Notes under the pieces: generated by a model | The model's input: only the letters and a program-made list of their open reading frames with translations | The model's database searches: none | Told to the model about the DNA's origin: nothing | Program-made: the position numbers and the translations under genes | From: Desulfosudaceae bacterium | Lineage (GTDB): Bacteria > Desulfobacterota > Desulfobacteria > Desulfobacterales > Desulfosudaceae | Length of the DNA stretch: 64,000 nt | NCBI GenBank assembly: GCA_963674745.2 | Contig: CAXXDV010000001.1 | Coordinates: 256,001-320,000, forward strand | Direction: 5' to 3' | Shown: piece by piece, positions 2,202-11,798 of the stretch | How positions within the stretch are numbered: the stretch's first letter is position 1 | Layout: every line of letters starts with the position of its first letter

Positions 2202-5200
2202 TTATCGGGCAACTGCTTCATTGGCCTTCTTTTCCTTCTGATATTCCACGAATCCGGTTCCGGCCGGGATCAATCTGCCCATGACCAGGTTTTCCTTCAA
2301 GCCCCTTAAATTATCAACTTTTCCGGCGATACTGGCATCCGTCAGGACCTTAGTGGTTTCCTGGAATGAGGCCGCCGAGATGAAGCTGTCCGTCGCCAGG
2401 GAGGCCTTGGTAATACCGAGAATCAACGGTTCACCGACAGCCGGCCGACCGCCTTTTTCAACCGCCTCCCGGTTGGCTTCCTCGAATCTGATCTTATCCA
2501 CCTGTTCGTCGGTGATAAATTCCGTATCACCGGTTTGCTTGATTTTAATCCGGCGCATCATCTGGCGGACAATCACTTCGATGTGCTTGTCGTTGATCGA
2601 AACACCCTGCAACCGGTAAACCTCCTGGACTTCGTTCACCAGGTACCTTGCCAGTTCAACATCGCCCTTGATGCTCAGAACGTCCTGGGGATTGGCGGAT
2701 CCGGCCACGATCTCTTCGCCGGCTTTGATATAATCACCGTCATACAGGTTGATATGCTTGCCCCGGGGGATGAGATATTCTCTGGGCTCTCCGCCGTCAA
2801 TCGGTGTCACCGTCACCTTCTGCTTGCCCTTTTTCGTGGCTGCCCTGGCAATGGTGACATAACCGTTAATTTCGCTTAAGACCGCCGGTTCCTTGGGCTT
2901 CCGGACTTCGAAAAGCTCGGCCACACGCGGCAGACCACCGGTGATATCCTTGGTTTTGGTTGTCGACCGCGGCAGCTTGGCGATTACATCACCGGCCCGG
3001 ATTTCATCGTTCTCTTCAACCAGGATAACCGCGTCAACCGGCAGGGGATAACGGGAGAACCCTTTACCACCCGGCAAGGCCGCGGTTTTCCCATCTTTGT
3101 CCTTGATGGAAATTCTGGGTCGCACGTCATGGGCTTTACTGTCGACAATGGTACGGCTGGATTTTCCGGTTACCGGGTCAACCAGTTCCTGCATGGTTTT
3201 ACCGATAAGGATATCGCCGAACTTGACCACACCGCCGATTTCCGCGACAATCGGCGTCGTAAAAGGATCCCAGGTGGCCAGCAGGTCACCGGCTTTGATA
3301 CTTTCGCCTTCCTTGACGGTAACGGTAGCGCCGTAAATGACCGGACATTTTTCAACCTCTTTTCCGGACTTGCTCATAATGGTAAACTCACCGCCCCGGC
3401 GATCCATGACAACATTCTGGTTGTCAGCGTTCATAACCAGGTTGAGAGCGCCGAAACTGACGACGCCGTCCACGCGGGCCCTGATTTCGGCCTGGGCCAC
3501 CTTCCGGCTGGCCGCGCCGCCGATATGAAACGTCCGCATGGTCAGCTGGGTACCGGGCTCACCGATGGACTGGGCAGCCAGAATACCGACCGCCTGGCCC
3601 AGTTCGATCAGCTTGCCGTGGGCAAAATCCCGGCCATAACACTTGGCACAGATGCCTTTTCTGCTCTTACAGGTCAATACCGACCGGATCCTGATCTTGG
3701 TAATACCCGAATTCTGAATGGCATCCACGTGCTGCTCGGTGATTTCTTCACCCTGATGAACGATCAGTTCATCGGTAAAAGGATCGGAAATATCTTCCGT
3801 CGCGATACGGCCGAGGACCCGGTCAACCAGCCGCTCAATGACCTCGCCGCCTTCCACCAGGGACTCCACTTCAACCCCCATAATGGTGCCGCAGTCTTCT
3901 TCTTCAATCACGCAATCCTGGGCCACGTCCGCCAGTTTTCTGGTCAGATACCCGGAGTTGGCCGTTTTAAGCGCCGTATCCGCCAACCCTTTCCGTGCAC
4001 CGTGGGTCGAGATAAAATACTGCAGAACGCTCAGCCCCTCCCGGAAGTTGGCCGTAATCGGGGTTTCGATAATCTCGCCCGAAGGTTTGGCCATCAGCCC
4101 GCGCATACCCGCCAGCTGACGCATCTGGTCCTTACTGCCCCGGGCGCCGGAATCGGCCATGATGTAAATGGGGTTAAAACGGTTTTGTACACCTTCTTCT
4201 TCGGACGCCCGACCGGCATACCCGGATGTCTTCATGGCTTCCATCATCTCGTTGGCAATGTCATCGGTGGCTTTTGACCAGATATCAACCGCCTTGTTGT
4301 ATTTTTCACCGGCCGTAATCAGACCATCCCGGTACTGGGCGGCGATTTCATCGACTTTCGCTTCAGCTTCCCTGAGGATGGTCACCTTCTTTTCCGGAAC
4401 CACCATGGCGTCAATGGAAATGGAAAGCCCGCCGGCGGTTGAATATTTATAACCGACATCTTTGAGCCGGTCGGCAAAAATGACCGTGGCTTTTACACCG
4501 ATATTTCTGTAAGCGCAATCGACCAGCTCCCGGACCGCTTTTTTCCCCAGGGGCTTATTGACCAGCTCAAAAGGCACTTCGCTCCGCTGGCCTTCCATCA
4601 GGAACAACCGGTAACCGTGCCTGTCTTGTATCACGTCACTGCATTCACCCGGTTTGAGGGAGAACAGATACTCGGCATCGGTCTGGCTGATACCATAATT
4701 ATCTTCCAGAAGATACTGCCGCATGGACAGCTCCCTGACCTTGTCGCTGTCCTCGTGTTTTTCGGCCACCTCGTCAAAGGGCCGCCCTTTTTTGATTTCG
4801 GACAGTCCGGCATTGACATCTTTTTTCGTGGAAGCATGGAACGTACGGAAAACCGGGATATAATCCTGCGGGATAATTTCCCACAAAAACACCCGCCCCA
4901 CGGATGTGTCATAACGTTTACCATTAATACGAACCGTAATGGCCGCGTGCAGATCCACCTTGCCGGCGTCATAAGCCGCAATGACCTCTTCCGGGCCTGA
5001 AAAAATACCGCCCTGGCCCCTGGCACCTTCAAAAATAATCGTCATGTAATACAGGCCCAATACGATATCCTGGGTGGGGACGATAATCGGACTGCCGTTG
5101 GCCGGGGACAGAATATTATTGGATGACAGCATCAGCACCCGGGCTTCAATCTGCGCTTCGACCGAAAGCGGCACATGAACCGCCATCTGGTCACCGTCAA

Positions 5201-6581
5201 AATCGGCGTTAAAGGCCGTACATACCAACGGATGCAGCTGAATGGCCTTACCCTCGATTAAAACCGGTTCAAAGGCCTGGATACCCAGCCGGTGAAGTGT
5301 CGGCGCCCGGTTTAACATAACCGGATATTCTTTAACAACCTCTTCGAGGGTATCCCACACCTCGGGTGTTTCCCGCTCAACCATTTTCTTGGCGCTTTTG
5401 ACAGTCGAGACATAACCTTTCTGTTCCAACCGGTAATAAATAAACGGTTTGAACAACTCCAGGGCCATCTGCTTGGGCAGACCGCATTGATGGAGCCTCA
5501 GGTTGGGCCCGATGGTAATAACCGTACGACCGGAATAGTCGACACGTTTTCCCAGCAGGTTCTGACGGAAACGGCCCTGTTTACCCTTGAGGGTGTCGGT
5601 CAACGATTTCAACGGCCGTTTGTTGCTGCCGGTGACGGCCCTGCCATGGCGGCCGTTGTCAAACAGCACATCAACCGCTTCCTGCAGCATGCGTTTCTCA
5701 TTGCGCAGGATGATTTCCGGCGCCTTCAACTCGATCAGGCGTTTTAACCGGTTGTTGCGGTTGATCACCCGCCGGTAAAGGTCGTTCAGATCGGAAGTGG
5801 CAAACCGGCCGCCCTCCAGCGGGACCAGCGGTCTTAAGTCCGGCGGCAGCACCGGTATGACATCCATGATCATCCAGGCCGGTGATATTCTGCTTTTCCG
5901 GAAAGCGTCAACGATCTTCAACCGCTTGGACAGTTTTTTGCGCTTGGTCTCAACCGTGGTGGTCTCCAGGTCGGCCCGCAATTCCGCGCTCATGGCTTCA
6001 ATATCGCACCGGGAGAGCAGCTCACGAACCGCTTCGGCGCCCATGTCGGCCACAAAATTTGCGCCGTATTTTTCACGCGCTTCCTGGTACTCCTCTTCGG
6101 ACAGAATCTGCTGATAGCCCAGATCTGTCTCCTTGGGATCGGTCACGATATAGCTGTCGAAGTAAAGAACGCTTTCCAGCTCTTTCTGTGTCAGGTCCAG
6201 CACATTACCGATTTTCGTGGGCAGACTTTTCAAAAACCAGATATGAGAAACCGGTGTCGCCAGCTTGATATGCGCCATTCTTTCCCGCCGCACTTTTGAC
6301 TGAATCACTTCGACGCCGCATTTTTCACAAGTAACCCCACGGTGCTTCATGCGTTTGTATTTGCCGCAATTACACTCAAAATCCTTGATCGGACCGAATA
6401 TCTTGGCGCAGAACAACCCGTCCCGTTCCGGCCGGAAGGTCCTGTAATTAATCGTTTCAGGCTTGGTAATTTCCCCGAAAGACCAGTGCAGGATCTGTTC
6501 CGATGATGCCAGACCGATTTTGATACCTGAAAATGATTTGGGATTAACAGGTTTTGCAAAGAAATCGTATACCGTTTCCAA
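2202..6581 (-). CDS. rpoC: RNA polymerase beta' subunit, with a ~96-aa parvulin-like insertion
   Basis: NADFDGD catalytic motif, N-terminal Zn-binding Cys, QLTMRTFH trigger loop. Confidence 0.99.
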
Positions 6582-6584
6582 GAG

Positions 6585-9500
6585 CTACTCCTTACTGTTT
6601 TTCTCAATTAATTTAACGTCCAGCCCCAGCCCTTTCATTTCTTTCATCAACACTTTGAAAGACTCGGGAAGACCGGGGTCAAGGACATTCTGCCCCTTGA
6701 CAATTTTTTCATACATACGGGTACGCCCCGCGATGTCGTCGGATTTAACGGTCAGAAACTCCTGCAGGCCGTAAGCCGCGCCATATGCCTCCATGGCCCA
6801 GACCTCCATTTCACCGAGCCGCTGCCCGCCGAACTGAGCTTTACCGCCCAGGGGTTGCTGGGTAACCAGGGAATAGGGCCCGATTGATCTGGCATGCAGT
6901 TTATCATCAACCAGATGATGCAGCTTGAGCATATACATGGTACCCACCGTAATTTCCTGGTCGAAAGGCTCTCCGCTTCTGCCGTCATACAGTAATGCCT
7001 GACCGGTTTCAGCGACACCACCCTCCTTGAGCAGCTCTTTAATTTCCGCTTCTTTGGCGCCGTCGAACACGGGTGTTTCCATATGCACGCCCAGCCGGTA
7101 CTGTTTCGCAAACTCACACAGATGCGGATCATCCATTTTGTCAATGGCAGAGGGAGAAATGTCTTTAGCGCTGAATATGGCTTTTATTTTTTTCTTTAAC
7201 GCCTTGTAATTCTGCTCGGCGAGCAATTGTTCAATCTGGTATCCCAGGGCCCGGGCAGCCCGTCCCAGATGGATCTCAAGAATCTGACCGACATTCATAC
7301 GGGAAGGAACACCCAGGGGGTTCAAGACCATATCGACCGGCGTGCCGTCCGCGAAGTAGGGCAGATCTTCCTGGGGAAGAATTCTGGAGACAACACCCTT
7401 GTTGCCGTGTCGGCCGGCCATTTTATCCCCGGTTGACAGGACCCGCTTCATGGCCACATAGACCTTGACCATCTTGAACACACCCGGCGGCAGTTCTTCG
7501 CCCACACCGTAACGGTTCACGGCGTTTTCATATTTTTCCCGGCAGGCCTCTTTCTGCTCCCGGCACCATTCAAAAATGGCATAGGCCTTTTCGGCCACCG
7601 TCTCGGATTCAAAAGCGATTTTCTCAAGTTGTGAAAACGTCAGGGACTGCAAAGCATCAAGGGACATTTTGTCACCTTTGTCAAGCAGTGTCTTTTTCCC
7701 TTTTTTGATGGGTGCGGCACATTTTGCGCCATTGGCCAGCTTTTCAAATTCAGAACGGGTGATTTCTTCAATAACCGATATCTCATCATCCCGGTTCCGC
7801 TTGAAAACGGCAATTTCCTCATCCTCAATGGTCCTGGTGCGATCGTCTTTTTCAACACCCCGGCGGGTAAACACCTTGGCGTCTATAACCGTGCCGTTTA
7901 CGCCCGGCGGCACACGCAACGAGGTGTCCTTGACGTTACCACCTTTTTCACCAAAGATGGCCCGCAACAGTTTTTCTTCCGGTGACAGCTGGGTTTCGCC
8001 CTTGGGGGTGATCTTGCCGACCAGGATATCGCCGGGTTTGACTTGCGCACCGGCGCGGATGATACCGCTTTCATCCAGGTCACTCAATCTTTCCTCGCCC
8101 ACGTTTGGAATATCGCAGGTAATTTCTTCCTTACCCAGCTTGATATCCCTGGCGACGACCTCGAATTCCTCAATGTGAATCGAGGTAAACACACCATCCC
8201 GGACCAGGGTTTCGCCGACCAGGATCGAATCCTCAAAGTTGTACCCGCCCCAGGGCATAAAGGCCACCGTGACATTTTTTCCCAGTGCCAGGTCGCCTTT
8301 TTCCGTAGCCGGGCCATCGGCAATGACATCACCGGCTTGAACCACCTGACCTTTTTTTACGATCGGCCGCTGGTTAAAACAGGTGTTCTGATTGGAACGG
8401 ATAAATTTTGACAAATTATAAATGGTGACCGGCCCGGAATCTTTTTTACTTCCTTCCACTTCATGCCGGACGACAATCCGTGAGGCGTCCACATCCGTTA
8501 CCAGCCCGCCCCGCTTGACGACAATGGCGGCCCCGGAGTCCCTGGCCACGATTTTCTCCATGCCGGTGCCGATCAGCGGCGCGCTGGGATTGGCCACCGG
8601 TACCGCCTGGCGCTGCATGTTCGACCCCATCAGCGCCCGGTTGGCGTCATCATGCTCCAGAAAAGGAATCAGAGAGGTGGAGACACTCACCAGCTGAATG
8701 GGCGACACATCCATCAATTCAATATCCTCGGCGTTGACCAGAGAGAACTCGCCATCCACCCGGGAGATAACAACCGGATTGACGTAATGACCTTTCTCGT
8801 CTACAGGCGCATTGGCCTGGGCAATCGGATGATGGCCCTCTTCAAAAGCGGAAAGGGTTCTAAGCTCTTTGGTCACCGTGGAATCCTCGACCACACGATA
8901 CGGCGTTTCTATGAATCCGTAGTTGTTTACCTTGGCGTAAGCGCTGAGCGAAACGATCAAACCGATGTTCGGTCCTTCCGGCGTTTCAATGGGGCAGATC
9001 CGGCCGTAATGAGAGGGATGCACGTCCCTGACTTCAAACCCGGCCCGTTCACGGGTCAGCCCACCCGGACCGAGGGCGCTCAACCGCCGTTTGTGAGTGG
9101 TTTCCGAAAGGGGATTGGTCTGATCGAGAAACTGGGACAGCTGGCTGGTTCCGAAAAACTCCCGGACAACCGCTGAAACCGGCTTGGGATTGACCAGGTC
9201 ATGGGGCATCAGCACATCCACTTCCTGGAGGCTCATGCGTTCCTTGATGGCCCGTTCCATACGGATAAGCCCGATGCGGTACTGGTTTTCAAGCAGCTCG
9301 CCGACGGCACGCACCCGCCTGTTGCCCAGATGGTCGATATCATCGACCTGGCCCTGGACATTTTTCAGATCGATCAGCGTCTTTACCGCCAGGAGCAGGT
9401 CTTCTTTTCTCAATGTCGGCAAATCCACCCGGGCGTCTATGCCCAGACGATGATTCAGCTTCAACCGACCGACCGAGGAAAGATCATAATAGTCCGGTTT

Positions 9501-10694
9501 AAAAAACAAGTGATCAACGAAATCCTGGGCCACTTCAGGGGTGGCCGGATTCCCGGGACGCAGACGTTTGTAAATGTCGATCAGGGCGTCCTCGCGGGTT
9601 TCCACCTTGTCCAGCAGCAGGGTTTTAATAATGGAATCGGTGTGAATCGTTTCGTCGACAAACAGAATTTCAAAGGTGTCAATACCCGCGTCACGCATGG
9701 TATCAATCAGTTCTTCGGTCACAAAGTCACCGGCGTCGGCTAACATTTCACCGCTTTCAGGCGCATAAACCGTAACGCCGCACACTTTGCCGACAACATC
9801 TTCAAGGTTAATGGGTATCATATCGATACCGGCGGATTTGATGGCCCGCATCACCCGTGTACTGAACACCCGCCCTTTATCAACAATAATATCACCGGTT
9901 TCCGGATTTTTCAGGCGGGTCGACGCGCGCTGGCCCCGCAGCGCCTCTTCATTAAGCTGCTTGAAGATTTTCCTGCCTTTCAGGAAAACCTGTTCATTGG
10001 TATAAAAATAGTCCAGGATATCCTTGCGGCTGTAGCCCAGCGCTTTGAACAGGATGGTGGCCGGAAATTTCCGCCGCCGATCGATGCGCAGATAAACCAC
10101 ATCCTTGGGGTCAATCTCCATGTCGATCCATGAGCCTCTAACCGGAATGATACGGGCGCTGTAAATCACCCGGCCGCTGGAATAGGTTTTTCCCTGGTCG
10201 TGGCTGAAGAAAATACCGGATGAACGGTGCAACTGGCTGACCACCGCCCGCTCAGTGCCATTGATAATAAACGTGCCGTTATCCGTCATCAGGGGTATCG
10301 CGCCGAAGTAAATCTCCTGCTCCTTGATGTCCCGGATACTGGACGTCCCGGTTTCCGCTTCGACGTCATAAACAACCAGCCTGGCCCTGATTCGCACCGG
10401 TACCTCGTAGGTCATCCCTCGCTGGACACACTCTGAAACAGAATGTTTGACGGCACCAAAAGAATAGGCCACAAATTCCAGGGAAGCGCTTTCTGTAAAA
10501 TCCTTGATCGGAAAAACAGAATTAAAAATCGCCTGCAAACCGATATTCTCGCGATCTTCCGGTAACTTATCCAGCTGCAGAAAACGACTGTAGGACTCCT
10601 TCTGCATACCGATAAGATCCGGGATCTCCGCAATTCTCTCAAGCTTGCCAAAATTTTTTCTAACGCGCTTGCCGATGATTGATTCGCCTGACAT
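6585..10694 (-). CDS. rpoB: RNA polymerase beta subunit
   Basis: [40 protein letters not shown]. Confidence 0.99.
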
Positions 10695-10852: not shown

Positions 10853-11236
10853 TTATTTCAGTTCAACCTGTGCGCCGGCGCCTTCCAGCTGTGCTTTTAC
10901 TTTTTCAGCTTCGTCTTTTGCGATTCCTTCTTTGACGGCTTTTGGTGCTTCTTCAACCAGGGCCTTGGCTTCCTTGAGCCCCAGCCCGGTAATGGCCCGT
11001 ACTTCCTTGATGACCTGAATCTTCTGGTCACCAACAACGGTCAGCACGACATCAAATTCTGTCTTTTCTTCGGCCGCACCGGCATCACCGGCGGCAGGCA
11101 TGGCGCCGACCATGGCCACCGGGGCCGCGGCAGAGACGCCGAATTTTTCTTCAAGTTCGGAAACAAGCTCGGAAAGTTCGAGCACCGACATGTTTGCAAT
11201 AAAATCAATTACATCTTGTTTGGTTACTTCAGCCAT
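10853..11236 (-). CDS. rplL: 50S ribosomal protein L7/L12
   Basis: [26 protein letters not shown]; start moved to the ATG after GGAGGA. Confidence 0.97.
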
Positions 11237-11273
11237 TGATAAATCCTCCACACAATATATCTATATTTTTTCG

Positions 11274-11798
11274 TTAAGCCGCTTCTTTTTTGTCTTTAAT
11301 CGCGGATAAAACATTCACCAACTGCCCGGGAACGGCATTCAATACCCTGACCAGGGCGGTCGGTACACCAATAAGCACGGAAAGCAACTGCGAGAGTAAC
11401 TCTTCGCGGGAAGGCAGTTTCGAAAGCGCCACGATATTCTCCGGGGTCAACAGACTGCCGTTCATCGCGCCGGCTTTGATTTCCATTTTATCATTGCCCT
11501 TGGCGAACTCGGCCAGAATCTTGGCAGGCGCCACGGGATCATCATAACTGAAAACAACCGCCGTCGGACCTTTGTAATAGTCACCGACAACAGCCGTATC
11601 CGTATTTTCCGAGGCTCTTCGAAGAACCGTGTTTTTGACGACCCGGTATTCGGCTCCCGCTTCCTTTAGCTTGCCGCGCAGTTCATTAACGGATTCAACT
11701 GTAATTCCTTTATAATCCGCGAGAATGACAATGACAGCCTGCTGCATTTTTTCGTGCAGTTCTTCAACCTGCGCTTTTTTTTGATCAAGAGTCAGCAA
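11274..11798 (-). CDS. rplJ: 50S ribosomal protein L10
   Basis: VVKNTVLRRA, LSKLPSREELL; probable TTG start downstream of AGGAGGTG. Confidence 0.95.
   Translation of the reverse strand: MLTLDQKKAQVEELHEKMQQAVIVILADYKGITVESVNELRGKLKEAGAEYRVVKNTVLRRASENTDTAVVGDYYKGPTAVVFSYDDPVAPAKILAEFAKGNDKMEIKAGAMNGSLLTPENIVALSKLPSREELLSQLLSVLIGVPTALVRVLNAVPGQLVNVLSAIKDKKEAA

Follow-up and report, generated by a model that had tools for sequence, protein, structure and literature searches.

The window analyzed here is a 64,000-nucleotide stretch from a Desulfosudaceae bacterium (order Desulfobacterales; assembly GCA_963674745.2, contig CAXXDV010000001.1, positions 256,001 to 320,000 of the forward strand). 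It carries an rpoC gene whose product, the β′ subunit of RNA polymerase, contains an extra domain with a predicted parvulin fold. We assigned rpoC (window positions 2202-6581, minus strand), encoding 1459 amino acids (aa), from the list of open reading frames, the translation and a Pfam scan, which found Rpb1 domains 1 to 5 with E values of 2.6e-81 to 1.1e-19. The frame directly upstream of it (6585-10694, minus strand; 1369 aa) was named rpoB from its position and size, and the locus has the usual operon order rpoB-rpoC. The start codon of rpoC is TTG, 3 nt past the rpoB stop codon (6581-6587). The 96 residues of the insert, RpoC residues 573 to 668, are encoded exactly by positions 4578-4865 on the minus strand; an 11-residue segment ends at residue 572 before them, a 13-residue segment begins at residue 669 after them, and the frame is open across both junctions. 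Translation of 4578-4865 on the plus strand gave no sensible protein, and that reading was rejected.

Alignment of the region to β′ chains of solved E. coli structures using phmmer gave two blocks with 96 residues unmatched between them. The second block pairs query residues 189 to 280 with L587-678 of the E. coli β′ chain, and the insertion point lies between E. coli K585 and L587. A first-pass annotation, made by a model from the sequence alone, had claimed about 96 extra residues at positions 573 to 668 of RpoC in a place where E. coli β′ is contiguous, and both statements were confirmed by the coordinates and the alignment. The Pfam match to Rpb1_3 is interrupted at the insert, with the best stretch (residues 489 to 574) covering profile positions 1 to 82 of 162 and a second stretch following the insert. 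Conserved β′ sequence resumes at residues 669 to 697 (4491-4577, minus strand), which the phmmer alignment and the translation equate with E. coli L587-K615. We take Rpb1 domain 3, known as "pore 1," to form part of the wall of the secondary channel, and we take E. coli K615, I619, D622 and Y626, which begin 28 residues past the insertion point, to be site 1 for guanosine tetraphosphate (ppGpp). From Pfam and Table 2 of PMC11515920, residues 518 to 572 (4866-5030, minus strand) are the subdomain β′-bD4 within Rpb1_3, and the insert follows the last residue of this subdomain. The parts of that survey covered here (Alvarez-Carreno et al. 2024) describe β′-bD4 as a bacteria-specific subdomain nested in the universal domain uD3, with residues 518 to 571 in the type 4 example, and section 2.4 gives seven sites of lineage-specific insertion, among them the middle of β′-bD4. 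Outside the insert, RpoC residues 1071 to 1207 gave weak Pfam matches to Biotin_lipoyl_2, Peptidase_M23, RnfC_N and RPOC_hybrid; this is the usual barrel-sandwich hybrid region of β′ and is separate from the parvulin insert. The Biotin_lipoyl_2, RnfC_N and RPOC_hybrid matches, which are of the barrel-sandwich type, fall at residues 1071 to 1120.

The assignment of the insert draws on Pfam, sequence profiles, an AlphaFold2 model and structure searches with Foldseek and VIA-align. By itself, the window copy scored 20.7 bits (E 8.4e-4) against the Pfam Rotamase model PF00639, which has a cut-off of 21.7 bits, and it matched PrsA of Bacillus subtilis (1zk6) with an E value of 1.1e-3. A search of 1.84 billion representative proteins gave 24 matches at E <= 1e-3, and 12 of these were scanned with Pfam, which identified 11 as Rotamase-domain proteins and one as low complexity. 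No RpoC was among the matches in this collection, and the search is uninformative about the spread of the insert in RpoC. We extracted 30 orthologous inserts from RpoC; the window's family supplied 10 of them, and 20 further families of the order supplied one each. Of the 30, 26 matched the Rotamase model at E <= 0.01, the best at 5.6e-13. All six inserts scored from other families reached 32.6 to 50.1 bits. Of five window-family copies scored, three were above the cut-off (24.5, 25.6 and 27.9 bits) and two fell below it. The Pfam check proposed in the first-pass annotation was thus borderline for the window copy and clear for its orthologs. A profile built from the 30 inserts matched 38 distinct sequences in the PDB at E <= 0.01, all of them parvulin-type by name, with PrsA at the top (E 3.8e-12). 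Automatic annotation also labels the domain: of the RpoC-sized matches in a search with the insert profile, 12 of 23 carried a precomputed PF00639.

We built an AlphaFold2 model of the window insert using the alignment of orthologous inserts, and it had a mean predicted local distance difference test score of 81.5 and a predicted template modeling score of 0.72. The predicted strands (8-17, 50-53, 85-87 and 90-101) and helices (20-31, 36-43, 56-63 and 67-74) form a four-stranded antiparallel sheet packed on four helices, which is the parvulin pattern. Foldseek returned eight matches to this model of the insert at E <= 1e-3, and all eight were parvulins, among them PrsA, Par14, the parvulin domain of PpiD and a domain of the PpiC type. 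The matches from VIA-align had Z scores of 12.7 to 9.7 over 84 to 105 aligned residues, and all were parvulins among the 50 matches listed; 1zk6 superposed with a Z score of 11.1 and a root mean square deviation of 1.9 Å over 87 residues. It is well supported, by sequence profiles and by a predicted model, that the insert is a parvulin homolog with a parvulin fold, as the first-pass annotation had proposed from a residue pattern. We considered a barrel-sandwich or BEAN fold for the insert, and none appeared among the Foldseek and VIA-align matches listed. Those matches held no HABAS, BEAN or sLC chain, and the comparison was with the matches listed and not directly with a HABAS or BEAN model. 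Because the parvulin assignment is positive, membership of the insert in HABAS, BEAN or sLC is very unlikely.

We searched 251 genomes of the order, taken as Desulfobacterales from their record titles, with the insert profile at E <= 1e-12. The profile matched 222 of the 251 genomes, 171 of the 184 that were of high quality, and 126 of 141 genera. Families that gave no match include f3, f16, f21 and f149. Among the 150 matches listed, the frames at the matches were open for 681 to 1604 aa and were RpoC, or RpoC cut by a contig end. In genome G013 (C12:26778-27394), the rpoC match is split between two frames inside the insert, which stay open for just 236 and 187 aa; indel errors seem a likelier cause than a pseudogene, given an essential gene in a 20-contig assembly. 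Two inserts stood out in size. In the RpoC-sized protein P0049 (1505 aa), the insert is 136 residues long and carries about 36 extra acidic, low-complexity, Ser/Asn-rich residues in the loop before the second parvulin strand, so that the insert itself holds an insertion. Among the 30 extracted inserts, the longest (L060, G021:C40; 108 aa) bears 11 extra Arg-rich residues in the hairpin that joins the last two strands, has lost both histidines of the parvulin site and is the only net-positive one (+3; isoelectric point [pI] 9.35).

For the distribution across Desulfobacterota that the first-pass annotation had wanted mapped, we searched a sample of 201 genomes from the phylum, using 200 residues of RpoC as the query, and 190 gave a match. 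All six genomes of the same order showed one continuous match of 603 to 627 bases. Among the matches listed, those from other orders covered only query residues 1 to 53 or 147 to 200, with three outside-order rows extending up to about 20 residues further, and the two flank pieces abut in the DNA where both are among the matches listed. With the insert alone as the query, RpoC-sized matches occurred in only three genomes of the phylum sample, all of the same order; the insert-alone matches in 62 other genomes lay in frames of 181 to 766 aa, which we read as free parvulins. The insertion site holds 1 to 5 residues in all 16 usable RpoCs from other orders of the phylum, and insert-less RpoCs vary by 1 to 6 residues at the host loop. 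A scan of the collection with the 200-aa query gave a full-length match at 18 of 52 loci, and the remaining 34 were without the insert or matched one flank only. The carriers were labeled Desulfobacterales, Candidatus Desulfatibia or Desulfobacteraceae; some of the 34 other loci were also labeled Desulfobacteraceae, and name labels therefore draw no sharp boundary. Inside the order, the 200-residue query found rpoC without the insert in G019 and G032, and it gave no rpoC match in G014 and G027.

We placed the insert-bearing and insert-less RpoCs in a tree after removing the insert columns (52 sequences, 1051 columns, FastTree with LG+gamma, midpoint rooting; G153 left out). All insert-bearing RpoCs fell in one clade with a support of 0.942. 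The insert-less G019 groups with the outgroups outside this clade, and the insert-less G032 is nested deep within it, adjoining G021. The G032 gene (C343, about 11164-11475; L114/L118) keeps the order-typical flank LLWEIIPK and has six residues, DEVGPP, at the site; its frame is intact at 1378 aa, and a second genome of the same family likewise has no match to the insert profile. Because G032 sits next to G021 inside the insert-bearing clade, its state looks like a secondary deletion. The identity to the window insert is 69% and 66% within the genus, 49 to 50% within the family and 22 to 30% across the order, and this fall with distance is what vertical descent would give. The simplest reading of these sequences would be one gain after the G019 lineage split off, vertical descent, and at least one later loss. 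The nearest free relatives were frames of 318 to 335 aa when the window copy was the query and PpiD-like proteins of 635 to 662 aa when the profile was the query, and frames of 352 and 633 aa in the window's genome encode free parvulins.

The length of the insert is narrowly held, at 94 to 101 aa in 29 of the 30 inserts and within 94 to 108 aa in all of them. Within the window's family, the insert has roughly four times the nonsynonymous substitution rate (dN) seen in the rest of rpoC. The ratio of dN to the synonymous rate (dS) was 0.08 to 0.29 in the insert and 0.02 to 0.10 in the rest of the gene over 10 pairs, and these ratios are rough since dS exceeded 1, meaning saturation, in the majority of pairs and gave no value in 3 of the 10. 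The insert appears to evolve faster than the core of RpoC and yet to be under purifying selection. Net charge was negative in 29 of the 30 inserts (-1 to -13), and the window copy has a charge of -5 and a pI of 5.19. Because the inserts are acidic, we rejected nucleic acid binding of the kind known from Par14 as unlikely.

To compare the active site, we carried the positions of Pin1 and PrsA onto the inserts through a hidden Markov model (HMM) alignment to 4wo7. Table 3 of PMC12524980, the part of that source used here, equates PrsA H123, D155, L164, F167 and M173 with Pin1 H59, C113, L122, F125 and M130, equates PrsA F177, T195, Y197 and H200 with Pin1 F134, T152, S154 and H157, and gives Asp as the usual residue at the Cys113 position in bacterial parvulins. 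We rejected placing the Cys/Asp position at the Asp of the GGDLG motif, since the same table and the alignment to 4wo7 put it in the upstream Ser-x-Asp. The first histidine position (Pin1 His59, PrsA His123) is Thr580 in the window copy (4842-4844, minus strand); in the column counts it is His in 15 of the 20 other families and in none of the 10 window-family copies, which have Thr, Ala, Ser or Gln instead. The second (Pin1 His157, PrsA His200) is Arg658 (4608-4610, minus strand), with His in 13 of 20 other families and with Arg in 8 and Gly in 2 of the 10 window-family copies. Both histidines are kept in 12 of the 20 other families and in 0 of 10 from the window's family. Most related families thus have a more canonical parvulin with both histidines.

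The residue at the Cys113/Asp position is Ser in 14 of the 20 other families, Asp in one and Cys in none, and in the window's family this loop is about four residues shorter and has no motif. The Thr152 position holds Thr or Ser in 6 of 20 other families; in the window's family it is Thr in 3 of 10 and otherwise Glu, Ile, Arg or Asp. The Leu122 position is hydrophobic in 18 of 20 other families and is Glu in seven, Gly in two and Val in one of the window-family copies, and the Phe125 position is hydrophobic in all 20 and all 10, respectively. By the HMM alignment, the inserts have 5 more residues than PrsA in the link from strand 2 to the last helix, the part that holds the proline pocket in Pin1, and an extra helix is predicted in this link by AlphaFold2. 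The canonical network of His, Cys/Asp, Thr/Ser and His is absent from the window copy. Because both histidines are replaced and the Cys/Asp loop is shortened, the canonical catalytic network of parvulins is, judged from the residues, out of reach for the window copy, whose action is most likely noncatalytic. The catalytic motifs of this copy had been called degenerate in the first-pass annotation, and this was borne out at Thr580, Arg658 and the shortened loop. Cys647, within GECSD (4641-4643, minus strand), is invariant in the 10 window-family copies by column counts, and its column holds Ile or Val in 13 and Cys in 0 of the 20 other families. A histidine two residues past the lost first histidine (His582; 4836-4838) occurs in 6 of the 10 and would face the same side of the strand as the lost one. 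This family-specific pair could be chance or a re-formed site.

Based on these results, we consider it probable that the insert is a lineage-specific parvulin insertion that was gained once, is noncatalytic in the window's family and serves as an acidic docking module. A parvulin of the PrsA/SurA/PpiD kind would have been spliced in frame into a variable β′ loop, at the end of β′-bD4 inside Rpb1_3 ("pore 1"), in the ancestor of most of the order, and would have been inherited vertically since. A parvulin would suit such an insertion because the parvulin domain of the enterococcal PrsA-family foldase PpiC, as described in the parts of PMC12524980 covered here, natively lies inside another domain, whose N- and C-terminal portions flank it. 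Inserts of most families retain both histidines and a hydrophobic pocket, with Ser at the Cys/Asp position; in the window's family both histidines are replaced, the Cys/Asp loop is shortened and catalysis has most likely been lost. The insert would now project from the surface of the polymerase as a folded, acidic domain, probably close to the secondary channel, and present a partner with a face for docking or peptide binding. Several points weigh against this account. The window copy taken alone falls 1 bit short of the Pfam Rotamase cut-off. G032 lost the insert and has an intact rpoC frame, which means that at least one lineage can do without the domain. The fourfold dN of the insert also fits a weakly constrained spacer, and the saturated dS leaves the evidence for constraint rough. 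The position near the secondary channel would follow from the general description of the "pore 1" domain, and both it and the docking role are putative.

The faster evolution and the loss in G032 keep alive a reading in which the insert is a tolerated passenger, kept because clean removal is rare or because it now aids local folding of β′; we regard it as unlikely. It is consistent with the roughly fourfold nonsynonymous rate relative to the rest of RpoC, with the independent decay of the catalytic motifs in the window's family, G039, G036, G021 and G024, and with a host loop that varies by 1 to 6 residues in insert-less RpoCs. However, a passenger would have to be reconciled with retention in 222 of 251 genomes and 126 of 141 genera in an order of more than 160 families, with a length of 94 to 101 aa in 29 of 30 inserts and with dN/dS values below 0.3, and family-specific invariants such as GECSD would be unexpected for a neutral passenger in a highly expressed essential gene. 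We are more doubtful that the insert is a working prolyl isomerase in RNA polymerase that acts on bound factors or on the polymerase itself, in which case the window's family would be a degenerate offshoot or would use a changed mechanism, for example through Cys647 and His582. Both histidines in 12 of 20 other families, hydrophobic residues at the Leu122 and Phe125 positions in 18 and 20 of these, and scores of up to 50.1 bits on the Rotamase model all point in that direction, as do the invariant Cys (10 of 10) and nearby His (6 of 10) in the window's family. On the other side, the Cys113/Asp position is Ser in 14 of the 20, Asp in one and Cys in none, Thr or Ser stands at the Thr152 position in only six, and the link with the proline-pocket residues exceeds that of PrsA by 5 residues, with a predicted extra helix; the window's family lacks both histidines and the Cys/Asp loop. 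An intact-looking site does not guarantee activity either, as TbPar42 has such a site and is inactive with weak peptide binding remaining, according to the sections of PMC6468809 covered here. An isomerase would be more plausible in the other families than in the window's family.

A bolder version of this idea is more doubtful still, and we offer it as a long shot: in most Desulfobacterales, the insert would give β′ a working or peptide-binding isomerase site beside the secondary channel that remodels or holds proline segments of regulators. Its targets might be, for example, sigma factors, Gre/DksA-type factors or termination factors, and in the window's family the binding face would have outlasted catalysis. 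If this were true, isomerization would be a control step of bacterial transcription and a covalent counterpart of Pin1/Ess1 acting on RNA polymerase II. A misassembly, which the first-pass annotation had named as a way in which its proposal could fail, or a chimera with a free parvulin gene has practically no chance of being correct. The free parvulin genes of the genome (352 and 633 aa) could in principle have been the source, and this reading has no other support. It is excluded by the insert lying at the same codon position in 30 of 30 RpoCs from independent genomes and by profile matches in 222 of 251 genomes of the order; the identity of the insert tracks the host lineage (69 and 66%, 49 to 50%, and 22 to 30%), and the frame is open through both junctions. 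We also rejected, for three factors, the idea that the insert makes up for a missing one, as the genome has GreA, omega and a DksA/TraR-type protein. The matches to omega (129-aa frame) and GreA (160-aa frame) are about 50 bases apart on the same strand (G000 C3:784366-784785, minus), and rpoZ and greA appear to be neighbors in this genome.

A lineage-specific parvulin insertion would matter for several reasons. To our knowledge, the lineage-specific inserts of RNA polymerase recognized so far use a very small set of folds, namely, the sandwich-barrel hybrid (HABAS), BBM2/BEAN and sLC. Those polymerase inserts that have been studied modulate pausing, the binding of factors and the stability of open complexes. 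With a chaperone or isomerase fold that is fixed in the catalytic subunit throughout an order of abundant marine and sediment sulfate reducers, a new class of insert would be added, and this raises the question of whether a polymerase-borne peptide-binding or isomerase module recruits or remodels transcription factors. The order offers a natural comparison series, with families that keep two histidines, families with a decayed site such as the window's, and one lineage without the domain. In practical terms less is gained: the insert can serve as a clean molecular marker of the clade, whose polymerase homology models are affected by it. In the literature searched, which did not cover the Lane and Darst 2010 catalogue, we found no description of a parvulin insert in RpoC or RNA polymerase, and the insertion site may be entered there with its fold unassigned. 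The portions of the 2024 insertion survey (PMC11515920) covered here do not use the words parvulin, PPIase, rotamase or isomerase, and the part of its spreadsheet supplement that was searched contains neither "Desulfo" nor "Rotamase."

Among known systems, the insert is closest in kind to the lineage-specific insertions of RNA polymerase, such as SI3 of E. coli and cyanobacteria and the HABAS, BEAN and sLC domains. Like these, it adds a domain in frame to a variable loop in one of the large subunits, is confined to one lineage and is inherited vertically: it places 96 aa where the E. coli residues are one apart, and the matches listed from outside the order are flanks only. The β′ insertions in the sections of PMC11515920 covered here are mostly HABAS, with BEAN and sLC in rarer variants, and the insert differs from all of these in its predicted parvulin fold. 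It therefore belongs to a known kind, of which we found no description with this fold.

In sequence and fold, its relatives are the parvulins of PrsA, SurA and PpiD (PF00639, PF13145 and PF13616), to which it is linked by profile homology (PrsA, E 3.8e-12) and by a predicted model that shares their fold, with Z scores of 9.8 to 12.7 for their chains in VIA-align. These proteins are periplasmic or extracytoplasmic folding helpers, whereas the host of the insert is the catalytic subunit of a cytoplasmic RNA polymerase. The SurA_N/NC chaperone architecture is absent from the host, which has only Rpb1 domains in the Pfam scan, and the free parvulins lie in separate frames. SurA domain 1 and the PpiD domain are described as inactive peptide-binding modules, and by analogy the window copy without catalytic residues may resemble them. 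Compared with PrsA, the insert has 5 more residues in the link that precedes the last helix. Bacterial parvulins usually have Asp at the Cys113 position in Table 3 of PMC12524980; the inserts of the other families have Ser in 14 of 20, and the window's family has lost the loop.

The likeness to Pin1 and Ess1, which act on the C-terminal domain of eukaryotic RNA polymerase II, is one of theme only, a parvulin domain tied to transcription. Pin1 and Ess1 are free-standing, catalytically active proteins that carry a WW domain and bind phosphate through a long basic loop, whereas the insert is covalently part of β′ and in this genome is without the catalytic residues. The Pin1-type loop is absent from the AlphaFold2 model, which has two residues between strand 8-17 and helix 20-31; the Pfam scan found no WW domain in RpoC, and the insert is acidic, with a net charge of -5. 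The PPIase domain of TbPar42, in the sections of PMC6468809 covered here, is a parvulin fold in a larger protein that has no isomerase activity and binds peptides weakly. TbPar42 is a eukaryotic two-domain protein that keeps the histidines and the cysteine, whereas the window insert, carried within β′, has lost those residues.

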